Position numbers and translations under genes: made by a program | DNA from: Euglena gracilis | Lineage: Eukaryota | Assembly: GCA_039621445.1 (NCBI GenBank) | Contig: CP154954.1 | Location: 31,024,012 to 31,088,011 of the forward strand | Direction: 5' to 3' | DNA: 64,000 nt | Part shown: positions 3,001-56,451 of the stretch, one piece after another | Layout of the letters: each line of letters opens with the position of its first letter | How positions within the stretch are numbered: position 1 is the stretch's first letter | Notes under the pieces: generated by a model | What the model saw: only the letters and a program-made list of their open reading frames with translations | What the model was told of the DNA's origin: nothing | The model's database searches: none

Positions 3001-4266
3001 TGAAGAAAGCCACAGGTCGGAGTTCATTCGCCGCGTTTTGCTGGCTAAGAACTCCGCCAACAGCGTAATCGCTGCTGTCGACTTCCAGCACATATGGTTT
3101 GTACGGGTCCGCGATTTCTAGGACAACATTCTCCAAAAGCAAAACCTTCATTTTCTCAAGGGCCTCGCGCATTTGGTCATCCCAAATGACTTTGGTGTTT
3201 TCAACAGCCCAGTTCTTGAGCTGTTTTGTGAGGGGCACCCTGATTTTCGCGAAGTCCTTCATATATATCGCGTAATATTGGGCTATTCCCAAAAATCCTT
3301 TGAGGTGTGTAGTCGTTTTGATTACCTCAGGGGTCCAATTCCTAATGGCTTCGAGTTTACTCGGAGCGGCTTTCCGCTGTCCATTGCTGAGGATGTGACC
3401 GCAAAATGTTATGAGTATCCGAAACAAATACATTTTCGCGCGTTTCACGAAAAGCACATGTTTTGGAAAAGGAGTTAATACCGCGCAAACATGGTGGAAG
3501 TGTGTGACGAGGATATCCTCGCTCGGTTTTGCGGATGGTGGTGGTGTTCCCACCGGCACATCATCAATGTACACAATTGCAAACGGTAAATCGCGTAGAA
3601 CCCATTGTGTCATGCGTTGAAACATGGCTGGCCCATTCTTAACACCCATGGGCAGTACCGTCCATTGGTACACACCCTTGGATGTCACGAATGCCGTGTA
3701 TGGTTGGGAGTCAGGGTGCCAGTGCATTTGGTGAAAACCGTCCTCCAGATCGAAAATTGACCACAACCGGTTTTACGATTGTTTGGTGATCAAATCCTCG
3801 ATCAGGGGGAGTGGGAAGGGATCATCCCTTGTTTGGGAGTTCAGGTACCGGTAATCCAGCACCAGTCTCCATTTCTTCTGACCTGGGGGGTCTGGGGGTT
3901 TAGGAACTACAAATGCCTGGGATGTCCACTCGCTTTTCGAGGGCACAATCCACTTGCGCTGAATAAGCTTCTCAATCATTTCATTGAGAGCTTGTTCGCG
4001 TTCTCCCGAACAACGAAAAAATTTTCGGTGCATTGGTTTAGCTCCTTCCTTAAGCTCGATCTTACAAACACCGAACGGACCGCGTATCGCGGGGTCGATG
4101 TCGCACGCGTATACTGGATTTTCCAGCACACCGTGAAAGTCCGGGTAATCCGGGAACAGAATTCGGCTGACTTAGGATGCTGACTTGCACTCTCGATGAC
4201 CGCGGAAACCGCCAGGGTATCCCTGGGGCTACCGAGCTTCCTCGGCACCGCAAATTCGGACATTCC
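1..4266 (-). mobile_element. G0: 3' half of a degenerate Ty3/Gypsy chromovirus (RT-RNaseH-integrase-chromodomain-ORF3); continues beyond the left window edge
   Basis: Minus-strand ORFs 3773-4129 (WRLVLDYRYLN, FPLPLIED), 2876-3766 (LPMGVKNGP, YIDD, EVDSSDYAVGGVL, RPVAFFSRKL, EKE), 1847-2824 (HxxxH..CxxC, CMDF, IVSDQ), 1334-1774 and 1121-1333 (chromodomain VDKIIDH..WKVRWKG..EDTWEP). Broken by stops and frameshifts. Confidence 0.95.
64..845 (-). pseudogene. G0 ORF3: sense ORF downstream of the chromodomain, Pro/Gln-rich with a conserved unknown domain
   Basis: Frames 396-845, 265-483 and 64-252 join into RMSA..WDDHCR..W..GF..DITMCDLG..VPP..VGTYTAHFRAHSPGL, which matches the ORFs at 17813-18774 and 29464-29865. 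Confidence 0.8.
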
Positions 4267-6924: not shown

Positions 6925-7224
6925 ACCGCCAGATATAGCTCTGACCTCCATACACAGTACTATGCTCTGTGATATTCTTAAAGATGGCCAACGGCCTGAA
7001 TTAGGAATACATGGATCCATAGAGCAAAACCTTATTCTGGTTTCTCCTCTCCGCAGGTGGTATCTTACTATTCTTTTCTTCACTTGATTTCAAGTTTTGA
7101 CTTCTTCTTCGAAGTCCTACAGGACAGCCAAATAACTTGGATTTATTGGTTGTAGCCTATAGGGCTCTTTCGCCTGCCTTGTGCTCTGCATACAGGTGAA
7201 TGGTTCGACTTCTATATATACAGA

Positions 7225-7238
7225 TGAGAGAGACACAC

Positions 7239-7273
<35 letters not shown>

Positions 7274-7317
7274 GAGAGAGGAAGAGAGAGAGAGAGAGAG
7301 AGGGAGAGAAGAGAGGG

Positions 7318-7404
<87 letters not shown>

Positions 7405-7454
7405 AAGAGAGAGAGAGAGAGAAAGAGAGCGAGAGTGAGAGAGAGGAGAGAGGA

Positions 7455-7492
<38 letters not shown>

Positions 7493-7771
7493 AGAGAGAG
7501 AAAGAGAGGAGAGAGAGATAGATAGAGAGAGAGAGAGAGATAGAGAGACGCAGGAGAGAGAGAGAGGATAAGAGGAGAGAGAGAGAGAGAGAGAGAAGAT
7601 AGAGAGGAGATATAGAGGAGAGAGGAGAGAGAATAGATCGAGAGGGAGATATATATATATATAGAGATAGATATATTATGATATATATAGATATAGATAT
7701 ATATTATATTATAGAGATAATGATAATATATATTGAATATATATATATCATCCTATATATATATATATATT
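7225..7771. repeat. Degenerate (AG)n microsatellite followed by (AT)n
   Basis: Directly visible; AG to about 7648, then AT. Confidence 0.98.
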
Positions 7772-7836: not shown

Positions 7837-7838
7837 CT

Positions 7839-7847
7839 TGGTAGCAG
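7839..7847 (+). promoter_or_regulatory. Primer-binding site TGGTAGCAG (complementary to an initiator tRNA-Met 3' end)
   Basis: 2 nt after the LTR-terminal CA; same motif at 30657-30666. Confidence 0.75.
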
Positions 7848-9238
7848 TTTAGCTTTTTGGTTCCTTTTGACCAGTGTAGATTCCGGTGAAAAAAAGCAGA
7901 AACAGGTGTAAAAAGAGGGGATTGTATAAAAAGTAAGAAGAGACCCGAACTCTGAGGTTTGAAGGAGCGTATGCTGCGAACCGTCAGAGTTCGTGTCCGT
8001 GCGTACGGCTTTGCCCGGAAACGGCTGGTAGAGCCTCTGATAGACTATAGGCGGGGCACCACACCGCCTTTTTCTTGTTTTTTTGTGCTTTCCTGCAGAA
8101 ATGCAGATCACAACACCAACAGGCATTGACTACGCTGCATTGATTGGTTCACTTCGAGGAACTGAACCTGCAGCATCATTGAACAGCTCTAATGAGCATT
8201 CTCAACCCCATAGGGATACACAAGCATTGAATTATTCCACAGGTAATCCACCTTCTAAGCGTGTGTCACACCTATCGGTGTCTGTGTCAAGTATTCCTCC
8301 CCTCGCCCAATGGGCACCCCCACACATATCCCAATGCCCAACAGGCACAACCCCTTTGTTAGAGAGCCGATCGGCTGATAGCTATTCCTCCCGGCGAGAT
8401 CACGCACTCGTGCTGATTCTCATATTTGACTCTGAGGCGGATGCGCCACGACAGCTTTTGTCGAGGTTGGTTTAGAAACACCATGTTTTTCCAGCCCCCC
8501 CACCTGTGCCTCCACCGATAAGTCTGCTAGGACAACTGCCAGCACCACCAAATACGGGTTCTTTTCTGGCATTGCCATAGCACCCGGAGATGGGTTTGAC
8601 AGTACCCGCTTATGCAACCCCCGGGCAATCTATGAGCAATGATGTGGAAGAGTTGGGAAATATTTCCTTCCATCCCATTACCGTGATTCAGTGCATAGTC
8701 GCAATTTTTGCAGCGTAACACCCGCTTATGCGGCAAATTTCCCATGTGCACACTTGTGTAGCGGATTGCTCTATGACGCTTAACAAGGGTTTGGTTTTTT
8801 ATGAAAACAACCAAAAGGTTGTAGAATACAAGCTGGATTACCTTTGGTGTTATGTGCGTGATGTTGGTGAATATTGCCAAAACAATTTTTCAATCCACCA
8901 ACATGGACCTAGCCACTTTGCGTCAAGGTTTGGAGACACATTCGCAGACACATTTGCCACAACACTTCCAAAGAGTCAGTGAAGCCATGTGTGAAACACA
9001 ATCCCGCAATGATGCGATTTTGTCCAGCATACAACATATTTTACAAGCTTTATCCCATTGTGGGCGCTGGGAAAGAGATTAAGATTCCAGCAGAGGAATT
9101 AGGAATTACACAAAATTTTGTCTGTGTTTGTGTTTGTGTTTACAGTGGCAAGCAGCATGTTCAGTTTGACTTTGGTTGTTCAGTTCTGGGAAGTATCTTG
9201 ATTTGTGCCAGCGCTGGGAATTGGGAAGTGGGATTACC

Positions 9239-10009
9239 ATGAAAAGTTCCAAGGAAAGTCCCAGGTGGGTGCCAGGCCCCCTGGGTGAATTGATGGATCC
9301 CAGCCAGTGGCAGGGCCTGCAGGCGCCAAGTGCCAGCCGCCAGGGGGTTGTGGGAGTGGTGAGGCCCACACCCCCTACACAAACTGAACACTGCCAGTCA
9401 AACAACATGCCTACCAGCCACGTGGCGGCTGTCCGGCATGCCGGGATCAGGCATGGCATGTGCCTGCAGGAGATCATCAAGAAGGCGTGGACTGAAGGGG
9501 TGAACATCAACCTGATGGAGTATTATTCAAGTTTTGATGCAGATTGTGGCTGTTCGTGGTGTGCCAGTCGTGCAGCGGCTGCTGCTGCTGGCAGGCTCAG
9601 GGCCCATGGCAGGGTGGCCTCTGATGCCAGACTGGTGGATGCTGTGGAAGGACATGTCAGAGACGGGAATGCCAAGGATGGAAATGCCAGAGATGCGAAT
9701 GCCAAGGATGGAAATGCCAGAGACGGGAATGCCAAGGATGGAAATGCCAGAGATGGACATTCCAGACATGCGGATGGGCGAGATGGACATTCCAGACATG
9801 GAGATGGTCGAGATGGACATTCCAGACATGGAGATGGTCGAGATGGACATTCGGGAGATGGTCGAGATGGACATTCGGGAGATGGTGATGACGGAAGTTG
9901 GCATTGGGCCCCAGTGGGGCATGGCGAGGGCGGAGGCTCGCCGGAGAAGTCAAGAAGAATGAGAAGGAAGGAGCGCCGACAGAAGGCGAAGGAGGCCCCG
10001 AGGGGCTGA
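9239..10009 (+). CDS. Intact 256-aa ORF of mini element A: K.A..EG..EY..CxCxxC motif, D/G/R/H repeats, basic C-terminal tail
   Basis: First ATG after the predicted transcript start; no stop codons; shares its motif and architecture with the ORF of element B. Confidence 0.6.
   Translation: MKSSKESPRWVPGPLGELMDPSQWQGLQAPSASRQGVVGVVRPTPPTQTEHCQSNNMPTSHVAAVRHAGIRHGMCLQEIIKKAWTEGVNINLMEYYSSFDADCGCSWCASRAAAAAAGRLRAHGRVASDARLVDAVEGHVRDGNAKDGNARDANAKDGNARDGNAKDGNARDGHSRHADGRDGHSRHGDGRDGHSRHGDGRDGHSGDGRDGHSGDGDDGSWHWAPVGHGEGGGSPEKSRRMRRKERRQKAKEAPRG
9380..9390 (+). promoter_or_regulatory. Self-priming PBS CAAACTGAACA
   Basis: Exact reverse complement of TGTTCAGTTTG at 9158-9168 inside the 5' LTR; no TGG tRNA-type PBS. 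Confidence 0.85.
9659..9890 (+). repeat. Tandem 30-bp and 24-bp in-frame minisatellite within element A
   Basis: GAGACGGGAATGCCAAGGATGGAAATGCCA x3, GAGATGGACATTCCAGACATGGAGATGGTC x3, GAGATGGACATTCGGGAGATGGTC x2. Confidence 0.9.
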
Positions 10010-10220
10010 GGCCGAAGCCCTGCCTGGGATGGTGTGGGCTGGGTCCCCCTCCCGCATGCCCTGGGCCGAAGCCCTCACCAGCTGTGGCCGAAGCCCGCCG
10101 GGATGGTGTGGGCTGGGTCCCCCTCCCGTATGCCTGGGTCGAAGCCCTCAGGCGTTGTGGCCGAAGCCCGCCGGGACGGCGTGGGCTGGGCCCCCCTCCC
10201 AGGCCTGTGGCCGAAGCCCT
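10005..10220 (+). repeat. GC-rich ~75-80 bp tandem repeat (about 3 copies) in the 3' internal region of element A
   Basis: Recurrent GGCCGAAGCCC...GGGATGGTGTGGGCTGGGTCCCCC. Confidence 0.8.
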
Positions 10221-11371
10221 CCCCGCGGTAACCCCCTCCCGCTGCACCTGCGAGCCCCCTCCCCAGGACCCCCACCAGCCCCTGGACCCCCATCTCTGGA
10301 CGGGCAAAAAAGGGCAAAAAGAGGGGGAAAACGAGAAGAAAAAAAAAACCAGAGATGACGGCCCAAGGGGTATCTTTGGGCTGTTCTGGGGGGGAACCCC
10401 CGCCAGAACGGCCCAAGGCGGTGCGGATGCCTGCTGCTCCCCCCTGCTGCTGTAGGAGACCGATCCCCCTAAGGGTCGGCCTTCGACCCCCGCCCCGCCC
10501 CACAGAAAAAAAAATAAAACAGACAGACAGAAAGAAAGATTCAAGATTGTGTTCGTGAACGAAAAAAAAAAAACTCCCAGCGCCTTTTTGCCGAAGGCAG
10601 GTTTAGCTGCCCGGGGCAGCTTTTTAAGGAGGGGAGTGTGGGCGCTGGGAAAGAGATTAAGATTCCAGCAGAGGAATTAGGAATTACGCAAAATTCTGTC
10701 TGTGTTTGTGTTTGTGTTTACAGTGGCAAGCAGCATGTTCAGTTTGACTTTGGTTGTTCAGTTCTGGGAAGTATCTTGATTTGTGCCAGCGCTGGGAATT
10801 GGGAAGTGGGATTACCATGAAAAGTTCCAAGGAAAGTCCCAGGTGGGTGCCAGGCCCCCTGGGTGAATTGATGGATCCCAGCCAGTGGCAGGGCCTGCAG
10901 GCGCCAAGTGCCAGCCGCCAGGGGGTTGTGGGAGTGGTGAGGCCCACACCCCCTACACCATCAACTGGAGCCAATTAGGGCAATTTTTCCAGAATTACAG
11001 CAAAAGTTGCATGAACCCCCCATCAAAAATAATGATTTGGGACAATTCATCACATGGAGCACGTCTCCAGACTTGCAGCTGCGTTTCAGGAAGCGCTACA
11101 GCGCATTTTCCAATTGAGCGGTGATTCCGTGAATTTTGCCCATTTTGTTTGCCCAAGAAAACGAAAGTTTTACCCCCCGCACACATGTACAACAATTGGA
11201 CGGGAGACCTTCTCAGCTGGAGCATAATTCTTGCCATTGTGGCGACATTCCCGCTAAAATTGCGAGTTTTCATGCCCAAATCACGAATATCGCGAGTAGG
11301 ATTGAGAATTTGCAACAACAGTGGCAAAAAGGCACATCGGAAATATGAATCGCCATCGCAGATTTGCAGAA

Positions 11372-11945
11372 AAAGTTGAGAGAGGGAACAAAACAATCAA
11401 AAGAACGATGCGGAGGGATGAAGAGCAAAAAATGGGAAACAACGAAATCAACCCCACAAAGATCGCGGAAATTGTTAAACAATGCTTGGAGAGATTGATC
11501 AACAAAAAAGGGCGCAACATCAAGAAGGAACAAAATAGATTTGAAAAAATCATCCGAAAAAATATAAAGAACAAAAACAAAGGCGCTTCAAATGAAAACA
11601 CGCAAAACAAATCAAAAAGAAATTTGAGCATTTGCAAGTCAGTGTATATAAAGAACATTGCAAAGAAAAGGTGATGATAGCAACGTACCGAAAAAAGAAC
11701 GAGGGAAAACGAGATCAAAGTTAGAACAAGGCATGAGGAAAATAAACGGGATCGAAAAATGAGAGCACAAGATGCAGGACGTGGTTGTTCCATGAAGCAG
11801 AGGTTGAAGGGGGGAGGAAAGCGGGGAAAAACGGTGCGGATTGAATGGTCGGGGCGGAGTAAAGAAAAGGTCGAGGATTTGAAAGGCCATGGGAGAGGGG
11901 CGGAGCATCGGAATTTTGGAGAAAGGGAGACCACCGTATCAAGGA
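11372..11945. other. 574-bp A-rich foreign insert in G1 gag flanked by a 17-bp direct repeat
   Basis: ATCGCAGATTTGCAGAA at 11355-11371 and 11946-11962. Confidence 0.85.
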
Positions 11946-14329
11946 ATCGCAGATTTGCAGAACCGCAATGCGGCAACCCGTGCACCAACACCACGTATTA
12001 GCGGACTAAAGGCCACAATGACCGATTTGCACCAAAAGCTGCAACAGGATGTTGGTAACATTGAAGCCGCATTGGCTAAGGTGCATGCACGCTATGCGGA
12101 AGTAGCTGGCAGAATCCCGGATGTCACCGGCGTTCAAAAAGTGTTAGCGGATTTGCACAAACGCATGCAAGATTTAATCATAAAAGTGCTTCAGGTGCAA
12201 TCACCAACCAAAGGCGTATTGCCATCAACATTACAAACTCCCAAAACCGCACCCGCACACTTGGAGCAATTTAGTGCATAAATGCGTGCGGAAAATCACC
12301 AAATCATGCAAGGAATCTGTGATAGTCTCATGAAAACCGAAAAAAAATCGGTGAAACAGGATGTCGCAAAACTGCAAAAATGACCTTACCGCGCTATCCG
12401 CGCAAGTTCCAGTGTTGAAGGAACAACCAATGGCTGAAAAAGTCAAAGAAAAGCATTCGGACCATCCCACCAAGCCATTTACACAACTGGAGGCCATTTC
12501 CACTTCGATGCGCACTTTGGCGGTACGAGTACAGGTATTGGACACAGGTTCCGGTGCAATTTCGAAAGATTTGCAGCCGATTTCCGACAAAATCCTGCTT
12601 TTGGATGAGTTACCCTCATACCGTAGGCGGAGTAAGCGTTTGCAGGAGGACGTGGGTCGGATAACCGACAATTGGCAGGTTGCTGACCATTTGGAGCAAC
12701 GTGTGCATCAGTTTGCTACATACTCGGACCAAGTACAAGCACTACCGCGTTCCATACATCAAAACCTGCTATCGGGTATGGTTGACACACTTGCTACATC
12801 TTCCGGCGGTCGAGCGGATACCCGCTCCCCGCGTCGTCATGATGCCAAAAGGCAATCACAATCGCGAAACTGCTGTTGCCTTTGTAGGTCTGAAGACCTC
12901 CACTCATCCAAGTGCCCACGTTCCCGTTCTCCCCGCCCTGGCCATGGTCGTCGCGATTGCAATTGCGGTTCTGCCAGTAGGCAGCGGGTTGGTTTCAAAA
13001 TATCCTGTATCGAGGAGAAACACCTGGCTTCGGGCAGGAGGAGGACGAGAGCACCGAGGATGAGTTGGCGGAAGACAGGAGTGCGATTCGCGCGACACGC
13101 GCAGTTTATTCCAGAAGTCCACCACAGGCCAAAGGGACGACTCCGATATGGAGTAGGGGAGCCCGAGGTCTGAGGGCACAGACATCTGGGCAGATGAACA
13201 GATGGAGGCAGGAACTGATCACCCCTGCCCCCCCTGCCAATCGGTCTTTTTGGTCGGTACCCAGAAAATGTTCAGGTCCTCCACTCCCCCCTCCAAGTTT
13301 TTGCTTGGAATGTTGAGCAAAGTAAGCAAATGGTCATGGAACAGTTGGCGCGACAACAATTTTACCTCTGACGCTCCGCTTTGCGTACCCCCCATGGAAC
13401 TATGGTTTGAGCCAAAATCAAAACACAAAATTTCTGTGCACAAGCCAAAATTTTAATCGACACAGTGTGTTGAATCCCGCTTATTTTCCGCAAAGGACTG
13501 ATACCCAACTCCCTCTTGGTTCATGCCAAGAATCCCATCAAAATTATGCCCTCTGAAAACAGCCCCATGTGCGGTGGTGACTTGGGATGCCTTTTTGGAC
13601 TGCCCAGCGGCACAACTTTTTTGTTTTCAACCAGGTGTGTTGATTTCAGACAGCTAACCCAACCTACACCAACTTATGCAGTGACACCCACACAAACGCG
13701 CACCTCAAGCACCAACCCTCCTACCAAAGCGCTCACTGTTCTGAGAATCTCCGCTTACCCTTATTTTGATTGTGAATGTCTAGTTGAATATTCCAAACTA
13801 ATCCGATTGGATCCCGGAACCGGGAATTTTTCATCCCCTACCCAAACCTTTACACTTGTTAGTGGTAGTTTCGGTACTTATTTAATAGATAACCAAAAGG
13901 TACAGAGCCAGAGTACAATGGGTGATACACTCATCCGTACACTTGTTATTTTTTCACATCTCACAACTGCACTTGTCCGGTTTTTCGCAATTTGCGGATG
14001 CTATTCAAGCACTACAGTGCAAATGCATGGCCTCCCTCTTCAGATTTGCGCCTAGCGCTCCCCACGCGCCTATGGCGCTCTCCACACACCCCGCGCATAT
14101 CGTGCTTCACGCACACAGTGCGAATTGAGACATATTACGCATTCTGCACTATTGCACATCACCGATGACTGCAGGTATGCCCAACCCACACATGCCCCGT
14201 CTGTATCGAGTCCTATGGACATGTGTGTGGATGATTCACAATTCTGTTGGTCTGTTTTACAGCATGTACCACCCCTTCAGGATGTTGAGCAGGTCTCCAA
14301 GAACACAAAGGACAATTGGAATGCTTTTC

Positions 14330-14720
14330 AGTTTGGTCAATTTCCAAAATCGCCGATATGGCGGTTTGCTTTGATTTGACCTTAGAATGATGATACATTC
14401 TCTTCCAACGGACATTCGCGATTACCGCGACGTTGGTCGCAGCATTCTAACGCTTTTGATAAGTTTTGTTGAGACACTATCCTTTGGATGCATCCCCCTA
14501 AAGCTTATCCCCCTTGTAAAAAAAATTTCCAGGATCAAGTGCGAGGCGCATTACTTCTTCCTGTGAATCACAGAAGCTGAATGGTTCAAAATTTGAATTA
14601 TGTCACCTTTTTTGGTGGGACCTGCCAAACGGTGTCCCTCTATTCGAGGATTTCCGTGGAGTAGCGTTACCACCTGTTCAAGAAAACAAATTTCGCGTTT
14701 GTTTCTTTGACAATTTTAAT
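14330..14720 (+). pseudogene. Dam-like (DIRS-type) N6-adenine methyltransferase domain in G1 pol
   Basis: DTFSSNGHSRLPRRWSQHSNAFDKF..LWMHPP..DQVRGALLLPV..EW..WWDLPNGVPLFE..FRVCFFD, lying between protease and RT. Confidence 0.75.
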
Positions 14721-17372
14721 TCTTCCCAAACTTCCCCCCTGAATGTTAGTGTTGGATGATACCGACCATGTAGGAGCCGATATGGCTTTGCTCCATTCTG
14801 CTGATAGGCATCGCCGTTCGGCCCCCTCTAGGGTTAATATGACCCATCAACAGGTTTCCGCTATCATTCAAAGTGCAGGACAGCACACCAATTCAGCAGA
14901 ACTTAATACGCGGATCAGTCACAAATTTTCTGGTGTTTCAGAGAATCCTGTTTACGCATGTGATATAGACCCCGCATATTAGCGGGCCTTTTGGTGTCTG
15001 TAACATTCAGCTTAAGGAAGGCGTAAAGCCAATGCATCGGAAATTTTTCCGTTGTTCAAGAGAAAGAGAGATATCTCTCAATGAAATGACTGAAAAGCCC
15101 ATAGAGCGGAAGTGGATCAACCCTTCGAAGAGTGAATGGACCTCATAGGCTTTTGTTCTTTCCTCAGCCCCCAGACCCAACTGGTCAGAAAAAGTGGAGG
15201 CTGGTACTGGATTATCGGTACTTAAACTCGCAAACGAAGGATGACCCATTCACGTTACCTCTATTTGAGGACCTCGTCGCAAAACAAGCGGATAACCGCT
15301 TGTGGGCAATTTTCGACCTGGGGGATGGATTCCACCGAATGCATCTGGATCCTGTTTCACAAGCCTATACGTCATTTGTAACATCCAAAGGTGTTTACAA
15401 ATGGACGGTTTTTCCAAGGGGTGTTAAAAATGGGCCAGCAATGTTTCAGCTCATGATCCAATGGATCTTCCGGGATTTACCGTTTGTGCTGGTATACATT
15501 AATGATGTTATGGTCGGAACCAGCCCTCCATCAGCGAATACACATTAGAATACTCTCGATGTTCAATATTGTGATGTTTGAGCTGTGTTAACCGCTTATC
15601 TCAAACACAGACGTTTCGTCAAACGTGCTAAAATGCCCTTATTTCGCGAAACAATAAAATTTTGCGGTTACATTCTGGATAATGGCCAACGCCGAGTTGC
15701 GCGTAGCAGACTTGAGGCTATTAAGAAATGTACACTGAAGTCATCAAGACCATCACTCATTTGAACGGGTTTTTGTGAATAGCCCAATACTACGCCGTTT
15801 ATTTGAAAGATTTGGCGAAAATCGCGGTACCTCTAACGAGGCAGCTCAAAATATTGCGCACCAGAAAATACAAAATTCAAATTGGACGCAGACATGCGTT
15901 AATCTCTAGAGAGCATTAAAAAGCTAACGCTTGAAAAGGTCGTACTCAACATCGGGGATCTCTACAAGCCTTATGTGCTCGAAGTCGATAGCAGCGATCA
16001 TGCTGTAGGCGGTGATCTAAGCCAGCGTGACGCAGACAACGAGTTACGCCCTGTAGCATTTTTCAGCCGGAAGCTACAAGTGAAGATTGCAAAGGCCAAG
16101 TCAAATGGAGTAAAAGCGGTGAAACCGCGCAGAGGTACCCTCCCTGGTACCCTTGACGTTTTCCGCGTACCCTCCGACATTTTTACGTCCCTCCGTATGG
16201 ATTTGTTTAAATTACAACCTTGCAAAGGATCAGACGGCAATCTTTACGACTATGTCTTTGTCGTCGTCTGCAGGCTGAGTGGTTACATAGTAGCCATTCT
16301 ATGCCAAAATGCAGGGTTGACCGCGCAAATTTTAGCACTTATATTTATCGAGAAGTGTATTTGCCTAATGGGTCTACCGAATGAGAATGTCAGTGATTGA
16401 GATCATTTCATCTCTTCCGGATTCTTGACTGGGAATCACTGGGAATCGAACATCATTTTTCCATTATATGTATCGCCCGAACGGCAATGGCCGCGCCGAG
16501 GCAGCAGTGCAGGCTGTTGTAAATATGCTCCGCCTCTCACTGGCTGACTCGCGCCAGGCCTCAGTCCAGGTTTTGCCATGGTCCCTCTATTATATAAACA
16601 CCCCACCGGGTTTAGTTTTGCCGCACTCCCCATACATAACTGTTTTTGGGCGAGAACCGCCGGCGATTGGTGATATACCATCAGAGAGACCGGCTGGAAG
16701 TATCGTAACCTGTGAGACATGGTTCTCTGAAGTAGTGACTCTCAAAACTACTGTTCAAAACCGTATCAATGATATCTATTCTCAAAATAGAAACAAATTT
16801 TTGCAAGTATTGAAAGCACATAGCTACATTCCTGGTGGCCGCGTATGGGTACGAAATAGTCGCACAAGCATGCAAGCTTCCAAGCTAGACCCCCTCTGGC
16901 TGGGACCCTGTTAAAATCCTGAACGCGCTGGTAACAATGGCCGCTATAGGATGGCACTGCCGAACGGGATCGAGAATGTTCACATGGATGATTTCAAGCC
17001 ATATCTGTCCCCGCCTAATAGCAAAGCACTACCGTGCCTTTTTTTTAAGCCCTGTACAAAATTACTAGAAACGGAGGATTTTGTGGAAGACAAAATTCTC
17101 GATAACAAAATTGATAGGGGTGTTCATTACTGGAAGGTCAGTTTGAAAGGATATGGGCTATAGGAGGACACCTGGGAGCCAGCCTCCAGTTTTGTCGGTT
17201 ATGTACAACAGGACTGGAAGCTGTGGAATAAAAGAAAAAACATAGACTTTTTTGTGAATGATTTTTGAAACTGGACTATAGGCCTTTTCCCCGCCTCTCT
17301 GTTTTCTTCCCACCCCCAATTAATGTTTCTCTTCCTTTTCCACACCTCAAAAAGTTACTTTTTCTCGCCAGA

Positions 17373-18774
17373 ATGCAGGACCCAGGTGGGAGCGGCCCAG
17401 GCCTGATGCTCTCCCTCCCTACCTGCCAAACTCCTATGCGGCGGCCCCACCGGCCAAAGGGACGCCAGCATGTGCGGTATACGAACCCCATCCTGCCGCT
17501 TATGCGGCTCAGGCACGAATGCCACCCCCCCCACTCAAATGGCTCAGGCACAGATGCCATACCCCTCTCAGTCACATATGTCAGCGCCCTCTCGGGTACA
17601 AATGTCGCCCCCCTCTCAGGCACAACCGGCATCTGTCGCTCCTGCGGCCCCGGTGCCAATGGGAGCTGCATATGCGGCACAGCCTCAACAGGCATATCAA
17701 GTTTCAACGCAACAACCACCACCTCAGCTGGCACACCAGGTTCCGATGGAACAACAACAGCACGTGAGGCAATGACAGGAACGTCCAATGGGGCAGGCGC
17801 ATTCTGCCATGCATGCCTCACCTCCCATCCTGTATACACCACTATGCAATCTCTCAGCAACCCCAACCACAACCCGTACAGGGTGTGCCACCACCACACC
17901 TTGTACACGCCGTACAGGCGACGGCACCTCCTCCTGCTGCTCATCCCGTCCGGGAACCCGCGGCCAAGACCGCAGTCAGCAGCAGTGGTATATCCGCTTA
18001 TGTGATCCTTGCGGCGCATGAGACACCCCAAGAAGCACCAACGGTGCCATACCCCGCATTCACCGCGGAATTGGTGAATCTCGCCGAGAAAACCCTGGGG
18101 ACCGCCTTGCGCGTTAGCGCAATCGAAAGAGCAGATCCATCCTTGGAGGTGATGTGGGATATCCACTGTCGTCAGATTTTAGTCCTGGCCAATGGACCTA
18201 TTGCACAATGGTACGCGTGTGGCAAACTCCGATGACAGGAAAAGTGTACGTCATGCCAGGGGAATATCCCCCCGACGTCAGCATGTGTTCACTGGGTATC
18301 CAGGTACCGCCGATTCCGCGGATACGTCATCGCACAGGTGCATTCACCGAAAAAATGCGAGAACAGAGCCCCTCAACAGAGGAAAACAGGACAGGTGATA
18401 TTCCAGCACAAACATTGCAACCATCACGAATTTTTCGCGACTCCCAGTCCCCACCTCATATGCCGAGACCACCCCCACCCGAATATCGAAAACCCCCAAC
18501 GCAATATGCATATCAGCCAATTACGCAACCGTCAGCTGACCAACCACGTTTCCCTTTTCCTGCGCATCTGGAAGCTGGAAGCCAGATTCCTGTACAACGG
18601 GACCAGCCTGTGGCTCAGGAGTCCACACCCTGGGCTGAGGAAGTGGATCAAGCTGAGGCCGATTGCCGAAGGCATGGATGTGGAAGAGGAAGTACCAATG
18701 GACATGAACCTCTTCAAGAACCCCGCTTAACCTCACATCAGCAACCCATCCAATACTACCAATCCCTGGAATAA
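17373..18774 (+). pseudogene. G1 ORF3
   Basis: Pyrimidine tract-AG-ATG at 17373; RVSA..MWDIHCRQ..W..DVSMCSLGIQVPP..TGAFTEKMREQSP. Confidence 0.8.
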
Positions 18775-20991
18775 CTCCAAGGCCCTCGGTCTAGAGAACG
18801 CAGACATGCGTCACAGCGTTACAGGCCGGCAGATCTGTTTGCGGATTTACACAAACGGTGCAACGGTATTCAAAAATCATTTCCGGATATCACCGGCATT
18901 GAAACCGCGCTTGCGGATTTGAATACCCAACACAAAAACTTACAAACCACCACTTCCCATTTACAAAAAAGCGTTCAAGCACTTTCTACAAGGGTCTCCG
19001 GACTCCAACCATCCTTAGATGGACAAACTGTTCGCGAAGTCGAACTACCCCCTGATTATCAGACATTTTACGACTAAATGCTTGCAAAAAATCAGAAAAA
19101 CTAAAAAGAATTTTGTGAAACCTTGATGAGGAACGAAAATTCGGTCCCCCAACAAACTCTCACACTATAACGACAAATTTCGATGTTGCAGAACCGACTT
19201 TCTACAATGATGGACGGCAGAACCGCTGAAAAGGCGGTAGGGGTAACCCAACCCACGTTGCGCACCTCAACCACACAAACCGAGAATCGGATGAACGCCA
19301 TTACAACCGCGATGGAAACTTTGGCTAAACGGGTCCAATTCTTGGACACCGTTTTCCAAAGCTTCAGCGCATTTTAACACCGTTGTTGACAAACTACCAC
19401 TTCTGGATAAGTTACCCCTATACCGCAAACGTATTAAGCGTTTGCAGTGTGACGTTGAACGAATTTGGGTCCTTTTCCAAGTGGTCGGTTCGTTAGAACA
19501 AAGTATCCAAGATTTTGCATTGAGTCTGGATAAGATTCATGCAAAGTCCTGCAACCCCCCGCACATTGCCCATGAAAACACAGCTTTCGGTGGTCAAAAT
19601 TCGACTCCCAGTTCACAAAGTGCTGTTCGCGCTTCAACAGAAGCATCTTCGGATGGCAGACATCCAACTCGCGAATTTGTGCATCAAATTCGCGACTCGT
19701 TGGATGCCAATCCTTCCAGAGGCGCAGTATGCACACCTCTACAAGCATCTTCGGATGCATATGCCCTACAAGCATCAACGGATGCACGTGATCATGCACA
19801 TGCTTAGAATCGCGATTACAATCGCTTGTTTATACTCCAACTTAAGATGCCCCCCGTAACGGTGAATCTTCAGATGAGGAACCGGTTTTTCACAAGGACC
19901 GCGAATCCTGGGGTTTTACAACAAGACCTCCTTGAATCGGGACTGATTCGTGGTACGAGCCATCCCCATACCCCGGGTATTGGCCATGGATCGCGAGCGC
20001 GAAACGGGGGAATCGCCGGCGGTTCCCCGCTTTGTGGGTGAACAACAGGCTTCCTACCTCCCTGGGATGTTACCAGTCCCCGAATCGCGGAACCGCGAAA
20101 CACAACCACAAAATTAGCAGAATCGCGATATACCAAACACCCTGTAGGGGGGGGGGGGCCAATCTGGCCCCCACTTTGTCTTTTCCATTGGCAGATCTGA
20201 CATTTGCAGGTTTTTCTGTAGCAATTCTTGTACTCCCCAGCCAGCATGAATCCTTCCCTTTCAGCTACCTTCAGCGCCCAGGGGCCACAGACATTTGTAG
20301 GGTCTTTCCCCAGGTACTTGACACACTGCCTCAAATTTTCCTTTTCAATCTGCTCCTCCCTGCGCCTTGATTCCTCCATCAGCCAATTCATTGCGCCAAA
20401 CCTTCCCAAAACCACAGCAAGAAACAAACCAGAAGTCAAAGCCCCAAAGGGTTCATACTGCTTGCCACCTGCACAAAGTTACAGATGACAGATTGTGGAA
20501 TGTACAAATTAGGAATCTCTGGCCTGGCTCTGCTTTATTCTGCTGCACATCTGGGAGCGAATCCCACACTCCCCTCCTCAAAAACCTTCCCAAGCTATGT
20601 CAGCCTTTGGCATCTGGGAGTCGCTCAAAGATGGGCTTCACCTGTGCCACCTGCCTTTCCCCCGCCCTCGAGCCACACAAGTCGTTTTTCGAGCAATTGC
20701 CGACCCCACCATGCCACACCCGTGCATGCCGTGGCCCACTGCCTGCGGTTTGTGCACAGGGGGCAATTGGTTCCCTGGAGCAATGGCTACCTGAGCAATC
20801 GTCGAAGACGTGCCACCAGGGCCTGCCACACAGGGGGGGGGAGGGTTTGGGGCAAAAGTTACCTGGGCAATCATCCCGGAAGATGTGCCACCAGGACTTG
20901 CCACACAAACCGGCATGCCACTGAAAATTCGACCCGGAGCTTTCGACAGGGGGCAAAAAGAACAAGGCAATCAGGTTAACACCCGGTCCGC

Positions 20992-21687
20992 TTAGTCCTC
21001 GAGTCGCTTGGCAGCCTTAAGCTTCAGCCTTCTCCTTCTCCGCTTCCAACTGGTCGTCTCATTCTTCACTCTTGACTTTGGTTCGTCTGCACCTGGCTCA
21101 GCCACATCCTTCTTCGGGACTTCCCAGTTGAACGGTTCTTCCTCGTCGGTGGACTCGCATCTGACCTTTGACAGCTCCTTCTGGCTTGCTTCTTGCACTG
21201 CATCACCAGCATGTACACCTGTGGCATGCACAGCTTGAGCATCTTCTCCATCACCACTTCTGGCATGCAATGGGTCCCCATGGCCCAGCTGTACATCCCC
21301 ACATCCGCCTTCATCAACTTCAATGTCACCATGTCCAGGGCTGTAATGCCCGATGCTGGCATTACACACCTCAGCATTCATTGACTTGTCATCTTCAGCA
21401 TGCACAACTTGGACATCTCTGCAAGGCTCATGAACCCTTTGTGTAGGGGGGGGGCCAATCTGGCCCCCACTTTGTCTTTTCCATTGGCAGATCTGACATT
21501 TGCAGGTTTTTCTGTAGCAATTCTTGTACTCCCCAGCCAGCATGAATCCTTCCCTTTCAGCTACCTTCAGCGCCCAGGGGCCACAGACATTTGTAGGGTC
21601 TTTACCCAGGTACTTGACACACTGCCTCAAATTTTCCTTTTCAATCTGCTCCTCCCTGCGCCTTGATTCCTCCATCAGCCAATTCAT
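20992..21687 (-). CDS. Intact 231-aa ORF of mini element B: KVAEREG..EY..CKCQIC, acidic region, basic tail KRRRRRLKLK
   Basis: Part of the listed 247-aa ORF, taken from the first usable ATG; crosses the LTR/internal border as in element A. Confidence 0.6.
   Translation of the reverse strand: MNWLMEESRRREEQIEKENLRQCVKYLGKDPTNVCGPWALKVAEREGFMLAGEYKNCYRKTCKCQICQWKRQSGGQIGPPPTQRVHEPCRDVQVVHAEDDKSMNAEVCNASIGHYSPGHGDIEVDEGGCGDVQLGHGDPLHARSGDGEDAQAVHATGVHAGDAVQEASQKELSKVRCESTDEEEPFNWEVPKKDVAEPGADEPKSRVKNETTSWKRRRRRLKLKAAKRLED
21430..21441 (-). promoter_or_regulatory. Self-priming PBS CAAAGGGTTCAT of element B
   Basis: Plus-strand ATGAACCCTTTG (21430-21441) is the exact inverted copy of CAAAGGGTTCAT at 21741-21752 inside the 5' LTR. 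Confidence 0.85.
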
Positions 21688-24600
21688 TGCGCCAAACCTT
21701 CCCAAAACCACAGCAAGAAACAAACCAGAAGTCAAAGCCCCAAAGGGTTCATACTGCTTGCCACCTGCACAAAGTTACAGATGACAGATTGTGGAATGTA
21801 CAAATTAGGAATCTCTGGCCTGGCTCTGCTTTATTCTGCTGCACATCTGGGAGCGAATCCCACAACCCATGATACTTACGGTAGCATGAGTACCATCCTG
21901 GATGCGCATTTGCGCACGCCACCACAACAACACCACACAAACAATTACAATGGAAATCGCCGATAGCAACGCTACTTCAAAGGTACAATTACAATTGCTA
22001 ATAAGGTCAAGCCACAATGGGACGGAGATCCCACAACTTGGAAACTATTTTGGCGTGACTGGGTACACTACTTGGACTTGAAGGGTCCAGCCCAACACGG
22101 GAACCCCGATGTAATCAAAATGGAATTTATTGGTTGCCTCTCCAAGGAAGAAAAAGAACGTGCCCGAAAACTTGTGATCCGGGTTCGGATTTCTTTTGAT
22201 GAACTGGTTGACCAATACGCGTCAACTTGTTCAAGCCTGATTTCGTGAATTACGCTGGAGAAAAAATGGCGGTAATTCGCGCCTACTGACAGAAAATGGA
22301 AGGCAATGGTATTCCAAATGGTTGGATTGGATGCTGAAGTTGATGAACTGGGAGAGAACAAAATGAAAGAGCAATTCGCTTCGGTTCTTCTCCTTTTCAT
22401 TTATACAATTATCAAGGACATTGACCGTGATGAACTCGCGGACAAAAAACTTACACTTGACCAACGGTGGAATTATTTTTCCAAACAAATGAAACTCTCA
22501 CAACTTTTGGGACATATTCAATCGGCTTATACCCACCACCCAACCGCTGGTCTCCCTAGCGGTACGGTAAGTGCCCTACAAAGGACGTCTTCTCCAAAAT
22601 CTCCGCGGGAATACGACAAACATACAAACTCCCCAAGTGGAGACACAAAAACGCGCTACCCGTGCTACACTGACCAATCTACTGACAAAACGTGCTTTTT
22701 GTGCAACAAATCGGGGCATACGCGCCGTGAATGCCCCCACCCTGATACACGAAAGCGGTATCAGAGTCCAAGGGGATCGCAATCCTTGCCGATCTCACGC
22801 TCCTCTGGATTTCACACAAATCTGGACAATCACAGTATTTGGGTTTTCTGCGGACGTGATTGCGCACCTTGTGGTCGCTCACCCCGACCCCCTTACAAAC
22901 ATGATACAAATCGCGATTCATCGCGGTCACGTTCGCAAAGTGGGTCATCTTCTGCGCGATCGTCATCCGGGAAACCGGATTACAACAGCCGTGGTCGAAC
23001 AGGATAAGGTTCACCAAGACCTCCAAGGGGTGAAAGCCCATCAACGTCACAAAACCGACAAAAGTGTTCCCTTTGTGGATCACACACCCATCACTCGTCC
23101 AAATGTTACTGTTCTCGCTCTCCCCGCCCGAACCAACGTCACCGTAGTGAAACAAAACACAACAAAATACTCAAGGTCGGGTTCAAAATCTCCTCTTTAG
23201 AGGAGGGAACCCCGGCTTCGGGCAGGGAGGTGGATGAGAACTCCAAATACTCGCTGGAGGAATACCGCAATGCGGTCCGCGCATTATGCGCTATCTATTC
23301 ACACAAGAAAACGATAAACAGCCGAAGTGCTGAATCGGACCTGGAGTAGGGGAGCCCGAGGTCTGTGGGCACGAACCTCTGGGCTGATGAACAGAGAGAA
23401 GTAGGACCTGATAAACCTTACTTTCCCTGCTCACCTGCCTTTTTGGTCGGTACCCGGAAAATGTTCACGTACCCCACCCCCCACCCCGAATTTTTGCCTG
23501 GAATGCTGAGCAACGTAGGAACGGGATCGTAGGACAGTTGGAGAGACAACAATTTTACACCGGATCCTGCACTTTGCCTACCCCCATGAAACTTATGGTC
23601 TAAGCGGAAATCTGAACACAAAATTTTTCTACCAAGTGCAAACTTTGGTTGACACAGGGTGTCACATTCCCCTTCTCTTTCAAAAGGGGTTACTTCCAAC
23701 CTCCCCATGTGCCCCATGTGCTGTGGTGACTTGGGATGCTTTTTGGACATGGTCCTCCCCATAATACCCAAGCACCACTCACAACCCCCACACATACAAG
23801 TATTTCTGGGTACCTGGAGTTATGAAGCGGGTATCCGCGGGTCTGACACAATTTTTGGTTTTCCGTTCTTCCGTCAGAACCGCCTTGTTGTGGACTGCCC
23901 CTCCCTCGGTTTGCACACTACTTCACGCACACAACCCACACCACCGAATTGCCCCCCAAGGCGACTTCCCAGACCTCCCCCCGCCTTTCAACAGACGCCC
24001 AACTGTGCTGATGAGATTTTTTTTACGTTGCATGGTACTCTTATTCCAAAACAACACAACACAACTTTTTTTGAACCGAAAACACCGTTTCCTACACCAG
24101 GGGTGAAGAAAAAGCTGCCACCCTACACACTACACTTTTACAGAACGATTTCACATGCGGTAGGGAAAGCCAGTAGCTTAACTCCCCACGTTTCACTGGG
24201 TTCCAAGGTGAAAGCGCAAGGGCCTGAAGTTATAAAGGTGTCGAGTAGCCGCCCAGCCGCACAACGTTTACGTTTTCCACCAGGTGTGTCGACTTCGGAC
24301 ACCCCTGTACACCCCCCAGCAGCTACAACTTTCAACACACCCGTACACACACTACACATGACTGACATGCAGTACCAGACCGACACTTCCTGCCAATGCG
24401 CACATTGTAGGAGAATTTCCAAACAACCTGATTTTCATTGTGGATGTATTGTTGAACCTTCCAGACTAACCGCTTTACTCAACGATCAGAGTACACTTGA
24501 TAGAAGAACCGGTACCGAGTTTACCCTGACAACCGAACGAGAACACAACACACCGGGTTGTTACCCGTTGTGTGTTGAAGTACATCGACAACTGGACAAA

Positions 24601-25320: not shown

Positions 25321-28300
25321 CCACGCCGACAAATTTCTACGGGAAAAAGGTCAGAATGACCAAAAATTCCAACTATCCGTAGTGATAGAAAGCGGTGGTC
25401 AACATCGCAAACCACAAGAACTTATGTACAACGATCAATCGCGAATTGAGTGATGTTCTAGAACATCCTATCGATGCGCATGACATAGATCCTGCAAATC
25501 GCGGACCTTTTGGTGTCTGTAAAATCGAACTCAAAGAAGGTGAACAGCCCATGCACCGGAAATTATTCGATTTTCAGGCGGAAGAGAACAGGCTCTCCAT
25601 ACAATGATCGAAAAACTGCTTGAACGCAAATGGATCATACCACCCAAAAGGGAGTGGACCTCACAAGCTTTTGTGGTACCCAAGCCTCCCGATGCTTCTG
25701 GACAGAAGAGGTGGAGACTTGTGCTGGATTACCGATAGTTGAACTCACAGACAAAGGACGATCCATTTCCGTTACCGCTCATCAGGGACTTAATTAAAAA
25801 ACAGCCTAAAACCGACTCTGGTCTATTTTCGACTTAGAGGACGCTTTTCACCAGATTCACTTACACACTGACTCACAACCATACACCGCATTCGTCACCT
25901 CCCGCGGAGTTTACCAATGGACGGTGTTACCAATGGGTGTAAAGAATGGCCCAGCCATGTTCCAAAGAATGATACAATGGATTATACGAAACTTACCGTT
26001 TGCAATGGTATACATTGATTATGATGTGCTGATAGCCACACACCCTCCAATTACAAATTTGGGTTGCGGTATCCTTGATATCCACTAACGCGATGAGCGA
26101 TCAGTACTGACAACGTTTCAAAAACATTTGCTGTTCGTCAAAGGTGTGAAAATGTATTTTTTTTACTGAAACGATCAAATTTTGTGGACGTTGTTAAGAG
26201 AAAGGAGAGCATCTCAAAGCAAACTTAAAGCCAAAAAAGAAGTGGACACCTGAAAACATCAAAACAATCACACGTTTAAATGGATTGTTTGGTTTATGGC
26301 AGTAGTACGCGATTTCATTGAAGTATTTCGCGAAAAAAGCGTTACCACTGACGCGACAACTCAAAAAACGCGCTCCTGACACTACAAAGATACAATGGGA
26401 TGATACAATGCCAGAATCGCCAACGAAAATTAAACAACTGATGTTGGAAAACGTTGTACTTGACATTGCTGACCCGTACAAACCTTATTTCCTGGAAGTC
26501 GACAGCAGTGACTGTGCTGTCGGCGGTGTGTTGAGTCAACATAACTCGTCCAATGAACTGCGCCCTGTAGCATTCTTGAGCAGAAAGCTACAAGGTGAGG
26601 ACGGAAAAGGACAAGTCAAATAGAGCATACGAGAAAAGGAGACGTATTCCATTGTCCTTTTCCTACAAAAATTTCGAAGTTGCGTCTCCAGTTCACTCGT
26701 ACAAATACTTGTATTGACAGACCATGAGTCTCTCCAACATTGGTACACCGAAGACTTGAACAAAGAGATGTCCACAGTTTGCCGAAGATGCCGTTTGCAC
26801 GACTTTTTTTAGTCAATTCAACTTGGTGGTAGTTTACGCACCAAATCATAGTCAAAATATCGCAGACAGATTTTCCTGTGCACCCTGGCATTACCCTGGC
26901 AAACCTGGCGAGGGTGATGCCACGTTCCACGGAGGTCCCGAAACCGTCAATTTCACAAAGCGCGCAGACGTCGCTGACAACTTACTTGAAAAATTTCCTG
27001 TTTCGCATATTTGGCGGCGGATGCTGATCACCTCCATACGGGGAGAACGGCAACGCGGCAGAAAGCCGGGCCCCCGCGGCGTTGCGCCATCAGAATCCCC
27101 ATCCCCTCTCTTTATTCGCGAATGGGATTATTCCAAGGATGATTTTTACAATGGTATCGTACAAAGACCGCGTAATGGGAAATTGGTTGAGAATTGTACC
27201 TTATCGCCTTTACCTTTTGTTTTCCGAAATTATACTGGCTACAAATACTGCATACCCTGTGACTTGGTTGATGATGTACTTTTATGTTATCACAACCAAG
27301 GTCACCCTGGGCCCCCAAACTTCTTTCTTTGGTGGGTAGCAGGTACTGTACAACTCTGACCGAAAAAGAATTGTACAAGCACTGTTTACAAATTTCGCAA
27401 CGGTGCCAAATTTTTCAGGCTGTCAAACGCGCACAGGAACCCCCCCTGGTACGATGGACTTCTTCCCCGTACCAAATGACATTTTTACTTCCCTTAGCCT
27501 GGATTTTGTGGAGTTAGAACCTGGCAAAGGAACAGATGAAAAATTGGATTACGTTCTTGTTATCTTCTATCGGCTGAGTGGGTACATCGTAGCCATTCCA
27601 TGCCAGAAAGCAGCGTTGACAGCACAAGTTTTGGCACAAATGTTTTTAGAAAGATGCATTTGCCTCACTGGTTTACCCAATGAAATCGTGGTTCATCAAG
27701 GCCATTTGAGTTCTTCCCGAATTTTAACCACTATTTCTGGTTTACTCGGAATTGAGCAGCATTTTCTATCATTTACCGTTCCAAAGGTAATTTTCGCGCT
27801 GAAGCAGCAGTGAAAGCTGTAGCTAATACGCTACGAGTTTTACTGGCCGAATCGCACAACGCCTGGCTACAAGTAATACCCTGGTGTTTATTTTACATCA
27901 ACACTTTACTGGGTCTGATATTACAATACTTACCATACAAAATCGTCTTCAGACGAGACCCTCCAGCCATTGGCGACATACCGTAAGAACAACCCGCTCG
28001 TTTTAGTGTGAGCTGTGAAACATGGTTCTCTGAAGTGGAATCACTGCACACGGATGTGCAAAATCGCGCAGCCGCTGTACACTCACAAAAACAACGAAAA
28101 TTCTTACAGCATTCCAATTCACCGATATACAACCCAGGTGACCGCGTGTGGGTTCGGAATAGTAGAACCTGCATGCAATCCACGAAGTTGGACCCCCTCT
28201 GGATCGGACCATGTGATATCCTCGATCAGTTGGGTACAAGCGCTAGAAAGTCGCTGTACCCAATGGTGTTGAGGATGTGCACACGGATGACTTCAAACCA

Positions 28301-28876
28301 AACCTGATTCCACCAAATGGTAAAGCAACACCCTGCCTCTACTTCAAACCACGGTCAAAACTGCCTAAAACAGATGATTCTGTCGTTGACATAAATCACA
28401 ACCACAGGGATGGACATTACTGGAAGGTGCAGTGGAAAGGGTATGGTCCCGAATAGGACACATGAGAACCAGCAAATAGTTTTGTTGGTTATATCCAACA
28501 AGATTGGAAACTATAGAACAACTGAAACAACATAAACATTTCTGTAAATACCTGCTAAGGGACAATCTACAAAATGTCCAAGATTTTGTCCATTGTATGG
28601 AATTTTGACAAAATGTATGATGGGCGGACGTCAAAATGTATAACGGGCGGATGCCAGATCATTTGTCCCAAGCGAAGGACTTTCTGCTAAAGGACTACGG
28701 TCCTATACAACACACTTTTACACTTGGAGCTACAATTTTCATTTCCCACTGGTTGCAGACATATAAATATTTGTGTGTGTACACATTTGGTTGCACGCGT
28801 ACAATGTTTTCGTACAACGTCTCATTTCTCTACTTCCCCACAGCTTAGTGCTGGATTCTATCTGCTTTCTCTCAAG

Positions 28877-30543: not shown

Positions 30544-30654
30544 TGTTACTCCAAAGACTTTTCCCTACCATAAGTAGGCTGCACACCAAGGTGGAAGCGA
30601 AGGGCTTTTTCAGAAAGTCCCAAAAAGGGGAAAAGGGAAAGCTTTGGACGTACA
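30544..30654 (+). repeat. Putative 111-bp hairpin LTR between the G2 3' end and the G3 5' end, followed by PBS TGGTAGCAGA (30657-30666)
   Basis: TGTTACTCCAAAG...CTTTGGACGTACA; the two ends pair. Confidence 0.72.
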
Positions 30655-55996: not shown

Positions 55997-56451
55997 CAGG
56001 AATACTTAGCATCCCCATAAGCAGGTGGGACTCAGACAGGGGGGATTACTCACCGGACCCCCAGCTCTTTGGGTGGCTAAGGTGGCAGTTCAAAGGTTTC
56101 ATAAGTTTGGAAACAGATTTATTTGCCTCCCCAGGCAACAAAAAGTTGTCGAATTTTGTAGCCAGGTAACCCCACTGGGAGGCCACAGGAGTGGATGCCC
56201 TGCAATGTCCACTGGATAACGTGGGGTGGCTTTGTGCAAACCTCCCCTTGGTGACTCGTTCAGATGTTTCTCCCAAGATTGAAGAAGCCTTCCCAGATCA
56301 AATTTTGTATGGTCACCCCCTTTGGATTTCAGCCACGTTGTGTCCCCAATTAATAAAGATGAAAATACCAGGAACCACCTTCCTGAAAATCACTCCCTAC
56401 AAGGTCATTTTTTTTTACCAGTTGCAGGGGTGAACCAATGCCACCACCCAG

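Follow-up and report, generated by a model that had tools for sequence, protein, structure and literature searches.

Self-priming, in which a retroelement starts reverse transcription with its own RNA, frees the element from host tRNAs. In the long terminal repeat (LTR) retrotransposon Tf1, according to the passage on priming in PMC7175516, the first 11 nt of the RNA pair with the primer site, and RNase H cuts between bases 11 and 12. For Tj1 of S. japonicus, the corresponding passage of PMC4600332 likewise infers self-priming from sequence. Neumann et al., in the sections of their report that deal with priming, predicted this mode for 12% of the plant elements that they analysed, and place it in the Tcn1 clade (chromoviruses), in the TAR clade (Ty1/copia) and in Tf1/sushi elements, from fungi to vertebrates (PMC6317226); as described there, the plant Tcn1 and TAR lineages are autonomous and classed by their polyprotein, and their self-priming is likewise read from sequence alone. 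Among small elements, TRIMs as defined in PMC6934838 are shorter than 1000 bp, with terminal repeats of 100-250 bp and a primer site that is complementary to a tRNA. Here, we describe two small LTR elements, designated A (9059-10957, + strand, 1899 bp) and B (20143-21864, - strand, 1722 bp), in a 64-kb stretch of DNA from Euglena gracilis (GCA_039621445.1, contig CP154954.1, positions 31,024,012 to 31,088,011 of the forward strand; hereafter the window). Neither contains a pol gene, and in each of them the 11-12 nt that immediately follow the 5' LTR are exactly complementary to a site in the element's own LTR, as had been claimed in the original prediction made for this stretch. Self-priming of the Tf1 type is the best reading of this arrangement and, judged from the sequence features described below, a probable one.

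To our knowledge, self-priming has been shown experimentally only in fission-yeast elements and has elsewhere been inferred from sequence. A and B resemble Tf1/Tf2 (Schizosaccharomyces pombe) and Tj1, as these are portrayed in the passages mentioned above, in that 11-12 nt of the LTR, at the presumed RNA start, have their complement immediately downstream of the 5' LTR; further likenesses are the lack of a tRNA site and a hairpin that ends U5 and adjoins the primer site. In contrast to Tf1 and Tj1, they have no gag-pol, are 1.7-1.9 kb long, carry one open reading frame (ORF) that runs through U5 and the primer site, and are flanked by a 4-bp target duplication (that of Tf1 is 5 bp). The Tf1/sushi clade is defined by pol phylogeny (RT/RNase H/IN sequences, with a chromodomain on IN), and the likeness of the pol-less A and B to it lies in their predicted priming mode. 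Similar to TRIM, SMART and LARD elements, they are small, LTR-bounded, pol-less and presumably helper-dependent. However, with lengths of 1899 and 1722 bp, LTRs of 321-426 bp, no tRNA site and a conserved ORF, they fall outside the TRIM definition quoted above. The priming mode is already known; what appears to be new is its carrier, a pol-less element of 1.7-1.9 kb with a single ORF and a coding primer site. Among the papers listed by full-text literature searches, none was found to describe a self-priming non-autonomous LTR element, although the supplements of the plant survey cited above may hold cases.

Elements A and B and their primer sites

Both elements were present where they had been predicted, with shared termini, a shared polypurine tract and 4-bp target-site duplications. 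They have the structure of LTR retrotransposons, including direct LTRs of the TG..CA type (TGTGGG..CCTACA in both), duplications, a polypurine tract and a primer site at the 5' LTR. Their features are as follows.

Element A
9055-9058 (+): left target-site duplication, CCAT
9059-9379 (+): 5' LTR, 321 nt, TGTGGG..CCTACA, 2 mismatches against the 3' LTR
9145-9155 (+): motif GTGGCAAGCAG, common to B, directly upstream of the self-primer site; putative promoter or initiator
9158-9168 (+): putative self-primer TGTTCAGTTTG, exactly complementary to 9380-9390; R is predicted to begin at 9157/9158
9177-9185 (+): second, partial primer copy TGTTCAGTT, 9 nt, which competes for the primer site in some folds
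9239-10009 (+): ORF of 256 aa, with its N-terminus from U5, primer-site codons, Cys motif C-x27-CxCxxC, 15/30-nt coding repeats (9624-9890) and a basic tail
9343-9375 (+): U5-terminal hairpin that stops 4 nt short of the LTR end; resembles a U5-IR, with a presumed role
9380-9390 (+): primer-binding site CAAACTGAACA, doubling as ORF codons Q-T-E
10005-10221 (+): 73-nt tandem repeat, 2.9 copies, after the ORF
10626-10636 (+): polypurine tract AAGGAGGGGAG
10637-10957 (+): 3' LTR, 321 nt
10958-10961 (+): right target-site duplication, CCAT

Element B
20139-20142 and 21865-21868 (-): target-site duplication, GGGT on the element strand (ACCC on +)
20143-20568 (-): 3' LTR, 426 nt
20569-20579 (-): polypurine tract GAGGAGGGGAG
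20992-21687 (-): ORF of 231 aa; Cys motif inside the LTR (U5), then an acidic stretch and a basic tail
21430-21441 (-): primer-binding site CAAAGGGTTCAT, doubling as codons Q-R-V-H
21442-21864 (-): 5' LTR, 423 nt
21450-21468 (-): hairpin at the U5 end, GGGGGCCA..TGGCCCCC
21741-21752 (-): putative self-primer ATGAACCCTTTG, exact complement of 21430-21441
21754-21764 (-): motif GTGGCAAGCAG

In A, the 11 nt at 9380-9390 (CAAACTGAACA) are the exact reverse complement of 9158-9168 (LTR positions 100-110), and in B the 12 nt at 21441-21430 (CAAAGGGTTCAT) are the exact reverse complement of 21752-21741 (LTR positions 113-124). Both primer sites begin at the first base past the 5' LTR, i.e., at offset 0, and in both elements the putative primer has its 3' end paired with the base that adjoins the LTR. 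The LTR sites follow GTGGCAAGCAGY at an equal distance, indicating that they are positionally homologous; they read ATG-TTCAG-TTTG in A and ATG-AACCC-TTTG in B. When A and B were aligned, 22 of 23 cells paired; 7 of the 12 pairs were invariant and 4 were changed on both sides. Sliding the partners by 1-3 columns, as a control, gave pairing of 17-46%.

Complements of this kind could also be a product of chance, or a by-product of local duplication or inversion, in ordinary non-autonomous LTR elements with an unrecognised primer. Only two elements are at hand, and the second partial primer copy in A shows that local duplication has occurred there. However, chance expectation by arithmetic is ~7e-5 for an 11-mer complement in 321 nt (A) and ~2.5e-5 for a 12-mer in 423 nt (B). 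Among 20,000 random 40-mers from the window, matches of at least 11 nt were seen in 100 cases with the A LTR and in 143 with the B LTR. Those of exactly 11-12 nt numbered 8 and 7, respectively; the longer ones numbered 92 and 136, and 86 and 130 of them, at the 24-nt ceiling, were draws from the LTR copies themselves. A search with the LTR-end/primer-site junction pattern yielded three prokaryotic and three viral loci, which were rejected as chance matches, and a complement of at least 7 nt within 600 nt upstream was present in none of the six. In addition, both matches in A and B are exact and lie at a homologous place of the LTR beside a conserved motif. We therefore consider an accidental origin very improbable.

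The LTRs of each element are near-identical, as predicted. Those of A differ only at 9110 and 9118 (2 of 321), and those of B by one mismatch and a 3-nt indel in a run of C, which corresponds to 99.4-99.8% identity within A and within B. AGGAGGGGAG abuts the 3' LTR in both elements. The 16-mer spanning this junction occurs exactly twice in the window, and the stretch around it is identical at 26 of 29 nt between A and B. The LTR bodies had been described as different; they are not so throughout, as they share a 15-nt block, GTGGCAAGCAGYATG (14/15 identical), followed by a TTTGACTT.TGGTT block. A and B are likely to represent two subfamilies of one group of small, pol-less LTR retroelements.

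Contigs of a public DNA run join 9021 to 10962 with 37 other letters between them, the same length as 9022-9058, and join 20119 to 21865, an empty B site. These empty sites are paralogous copies of the host repeat that have no insertion and contain one copy of the duplicated 4 nt. Because they end exactly past each element, A and B are true, precise insertions. Within the window, the paralogous copies of the surrounding retroelement family (designated G, see below) are too diverged at the insertion points to provide empty sites. According to the part of PMC7175516 that deals with them, wtf genes lie between Tf LTRs in fission yeast, and A and B, with one small conserved ORF per unit and no pol, might similarly be immobile small genes enclosed by two solo LTRs through recombination. 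Against such an origin are the matching 4-bp duplications, the polypurine tract exactly at the 3' LTR, the primer site exactly at the 5' LTR and the precise empty sites, as well as the ORFs themselves, which begin inside the LTR and cross its end. Summed depth of the DNA-run contigs over A was also as high as that over the surrounding high-copy repeat (~10x lower over B), although this is a poor measure of copy number. We regard this origin as extremely improbable. Both A and B are repeated.

The self-priming model and its alternatives

If A and B are self-primed, transcription would start just after GTGGCAAGCAGY, at 9157/9158 in A and at 21752 in B, and the first 11-12 nt of the RNA would fold back and pair with the primer site that adjoins the 5' LTR, with the U5-end hairpin next to the duplex. 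Tf1 reportedly requires a U5-IR stem-loop. RNase H of a helper may then cleave the RNA just past the paired stretch, and the 3' OH released in this way would prime the minus strand through U5 and R. Not counting the attached RNA primer, the strong-stop DNA is expected to measure 211 nt in A (9169-9379) and 299 nt in B (21740-21442). AGGAGGGGAG would prime the plus strand, and integration would make the 4-bp duplications. Protease, reverse transcriptase/RNase H and integrase would all be borrowed from the helper. Copying of the primer during plus-strand synthesis, which follows the logic of retroviral and Tf1 replication, would rewrite the primer site in each cycle. Because the primer would be copied into the plus strand, perfect pairing could be kept in both subfamilies without separate compensatory mutations.

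This has a bearing on the claim of covariation in the original prediction. The observation behind it is sound, in that 4 of 12 pairs are doubly changed and the pairing is kept; its interpretation is less so, as it concerns two sequences only, and under self-priming the changes may have been copied by replication rather than selected. In the same way, the proposal of a non-autonomous self-priming family is borne out with regard to the insertions, the lack of pol (Pfam, window ORFs), the exact complement at a Tf1-like position and the four double changes, whereas priming itself is deduced from two DNA copies. With two subfamilies that differ in their primer/primer-site pairs, an element that is short, young and apparently transcribed would be a compact natural test case, in which the predicted starts, strong-stop products and pairing can be checked directly.

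Several results weigh against self-priming. Only two DNA copies were compared, and the shuffle control (27 of 500) cannot go lower; it cannot be strong because n=2. Minimum-energy folds of 9158-9395 (A) and 21752-21425 (B) close the duplex between the 5' end and the primer site, and the U5-end hairpins, which differ in sequence, adjoin the primer site (9343-9375 in A, 21468-21450 in B). However, fold z-scores are weak (-1.7 for A, -1.4 for B), and the predicted pairing varies with the chosen fold ends. In A, pair probabilities are 0.06-0.08 for 9157-9400 versus 0.81-0.94 for 9059-9400, the former being the range in which the second partial primer copy (9177-9185) competes; in B, they are 0.62-1.0 for 21752-21420 versus 0.0 for 21864-21420. 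Predicted folding is compatible with the self-priming model and neither supports nor refutes it. The contigs from an RNA library described below cannot reveal transcript starts and may include DNA carry-over. No polyadenylation site delimiting R was located. No helper was found among the window ORFs, and the other large ORFs are without pol domains. A search for longer proteins with the Cys domain of the small ORF found none; it gave two matches among 3737 candidates, both of them small. Finally, conservation of the primer site in relatives of the A ORF also fits a host-encoded primer or a constraint on the protein.

A host RNA, either a tRNA fragment or a small RNA, might indeed be the primer, and the LTR complement would then have another function, for example to mask the primer site, circularise or dimerise the genomic RNA, or regulate translation of the ORF. 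Three diverged A-type relatives retain the primer-site codons QTE(H/Q), as they would for a fixed trans-acting primer, and the context dependence of the predicted pairing is in line with this. However, the site of B is different and matches its own LTR exactly at the homologous place, so two host primers and two matching LTR sites would be needed. Complements of the primer sites were confined to the elements' own LTRs on the strand searched, and the pairing of the primer 3' end beside the LTR end is the geometry needed for priming. Neither primer site begins with TGG. Taken together, host priming appears quite improbable.

The first 43 nt (A) or 60 nt (B) downstream of the 5' LTR contain no TGG, i.e., there was no TGG-type tRNA site, in agreement with the claim that these elements have no tRNA primer-binding site. 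In addition, neither a tRNA gene nor any Rfam family was detected in the 64-kb window. The elements of the surrounding G family were correctly predicted to be primed in a different manner, and the contrast between the two priming types stands: they carry TGGTAGCAG two bases after the LTR end ..GTACA, in homologous places (7843-7851 and 30657-30665). We take this site to fit the 3' end of initiator tRNA-Met. The full arrangement, LTR end ..GGACGTACA, 2 nt and TGGTAGCAG, was observed at 7838-7851 and 30648-30666 (+).

The small ORF and its relatives

The elements had been described as bare miniatures. Pol is absent in both, but each has one ORF of 200-256 aa with relatives elsewhere. Both ORFs begin within the 5' LTR and continue across its end and through the primer site, where they encode PPTQTEH (A) and PPTQRVHE (B); no Pfam family was found for either. 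For the B ORF, one of 121 candidates was a relative (P0001, 163 aa, E 4e-33), which shares the Cys-rich N-terminus and the basic tail. An exhaustive search with the A ORF gave 165 proteins at E <=0.001. Eight of the 150 matches listed were fetched; the other 142 have their best stretches in, or overlapping, the repeat region. Five of the eight (P0005, P0015, P0021, P0041 and P0092) were true relatives with the best stretch in residues 7-127, and the remaining three were rejected as simple-repeat proteins. A profile search of the A-type ORF added P0154 (4 matches among 8000 candidates), whereas its pattern matches in genome contigs (25) and viral contigs (164) included no confirmed member. Every ORF relative found came from an ENA or JGI metagenome assembly; the contigs measured 788-1258 nt, and the clusters had 1-2 members.

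The A-type consensus is GMCLQ..W..G.N..L..Y.S.D..C.CSWC..R, followed by an acidic or repetitive middle and a basic tail. In three A-type relatives with 36-47% protein identity, the primer-site peptide was kept (PTQTEQ, LTQTEQ and SQTEH) and its neighbours varied. Pfam searches over nine ORF members gave only weak matches, DUF7574 in 2/9 (best E 0.0096) and a deaminase in 1/9 (E 0.082). With the ORF protein, a PDB sequence search had a best E of 1.5, and a Protein Atlas search returned no usable match. Its AlphaFold model (mean pLDDT 70.7) contained three helices, and the best Foldseek match of this model in PDB had an E of 4.1. A role in packaging or nucleic acid binding would be a guess. The small ORF, which crosses U5 and the primer site and whose relatives all come from environmental assemblies, represents an unexplained protein family tied to the A and B elements.

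Comparison of the A and B ORFs gave a BLASTP E of 2e-4 that was largely due to low-complexity sequence, and an hhalign probability of 1.9% (E 0.026, 20 columns); homology of the two ORFs is therefore not established. The Cys motif lies past the primer site in A and inside U5 in B, which offers a lead that the LTR boundary was shifted relative to one gene. It is conceivable, though rather unlikely, that A and B form a distinct kind of compact LTR retroelement, whose sole gene encodes a Cys-motif, basic-tailed protein acting as its own packaging factor, which parasitises only the enzymes of a helper and in which the primer site doubles as codons (QTE in the A type, QRVH in B). With the 5' end of the element itself as the primer, the primer site of such elements, and the LTR boundary with it, could shift with respect to the gene.

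Some additional observations concern repeats in these elements. The copy number of the 15/30-nt coding repeats of the A ORF (9624-9890) varied among public contigs; for example, a contig from the RNA library omits 24 nt at 9830, and a contig from run X15 skips 9800-9853. Tandem or near-tandem repeats are present between the ORF and the polypurine tract in both A and B. The one in B, at 20590-20920 (-), is a twofold repeat of ~60 nt with GTGTGGCA.G.CCTGGTGGCAC that was seen by eye; Tandem Repeats Finder called no repeat in this region.

Occurrence in public data and the surrounding G family

Part of A was found in 20 of the 24 public runs listed, which came from 16 studies, and half of its words or more were found in 15 runs. 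One run, X17, is recorded as RNA (a leaf-litter metatranscriptome), and sequences were compared as contigs. One leaf-litter RNA contig spans 9198-9522 and bridges the LTR of A, its primer site and its ORF; it shows 5 differences from A over 325 nt. Further contigs cover 9493-9702 and 9820-10154, the latter with a 24-nt deletion of a repeat unit. A is apparently transcribed. The X17 library had no contig upstream of 9198, over 10211-10647 or on B, which is evidence neither way. For two other runs, X15 and X20, an RNA origin is no more than a guess; X15 may be DNA because its contigs take in U3 from 9106 onwards and the greater part of B, at depth 2. At 9956 and 10139, every DNA-run and RNA-library contig compared had another base (A>G in 37 DNA contigs and T>C in 15, respectively), which indicates that the window copy of A has changes of its own that the bulk of the family lacks.

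The G family belongs to Ty3/gypsy and has RVT_1, RNase H and integrase domains; its pol genes are the only ones in the window (1847-3772 on the - strand, ~15294-16430 and ~25810-27735 on the + strand). Its copies in the window are old, with 66-73% identity among them. A Protein Atlas search with the G-family RT gave mixed eukaryote clusters, most often from Oomycota, Chordata and Arthropoda. The integrase ends in a chromodomain-like stretch (1060-1300 on the - strand, 16915-17160 and ~28300-28450 on the + strand), which suggests that G is probably a chromovirus. The Pfam Chromo match is partial and below the cut-off (E 4.3e-4, 20.6 bits) because an in-frame stop truncates the stretch. A and B resemble G in their LTR ends (..TACA) and reside in the same genome; they differ in that G has old copies, carries the tRNA-type site TGGTAGCAG and lacks the junction of AGGAGGGGAG with TGTGGG. 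Because of these differences, G is unlikely to be the helper of A and B. The original prediction had dismissed it outright; on sequence grounds, the weaker statement applies.

Other candidates for related elements were sought with the junction of polypurine tract and LTR start. In metagenome contigs, this junction occurred at 13 loci; all of them lacked the LTR, the promoter motif and any match to pol, and several resembled bacterial ribosome-binding sites. In viral contigs it occurred at 0 loci. Overall, the scans of metagenome, viral and prokaryotic contigs yielded no DNA related to A or B.

Several minor features of the window were also observed. A weak match to C-5 cytosine DNA methylase was present at 55355-56020 (+) (E 4e-4, 20.4 bits versus a cut-off of 22), and the ORFs tried beside it had no Pfam family. 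This match lies in a 2.9-kb repeat common to 36602-39501 and 52195-55089 (86% identity), which may be another type of retroelement. In the G family, a coiled-coil ORF is located upstream of the zinc-knuckle gag (32119-33546 (+); Pfam NPV_P10, E 3.9e-8), with weaker copies at 12033-12374 and 18847-20005. Element A sits just upstream of this coiled-coil ORF, in the part of G copy 1 that is homologous to 31580-31758. The LTR region of G upstream of the tRNA-type site contains a microsatellite, (GA)n followed by (TA)n, at 7214-7740.

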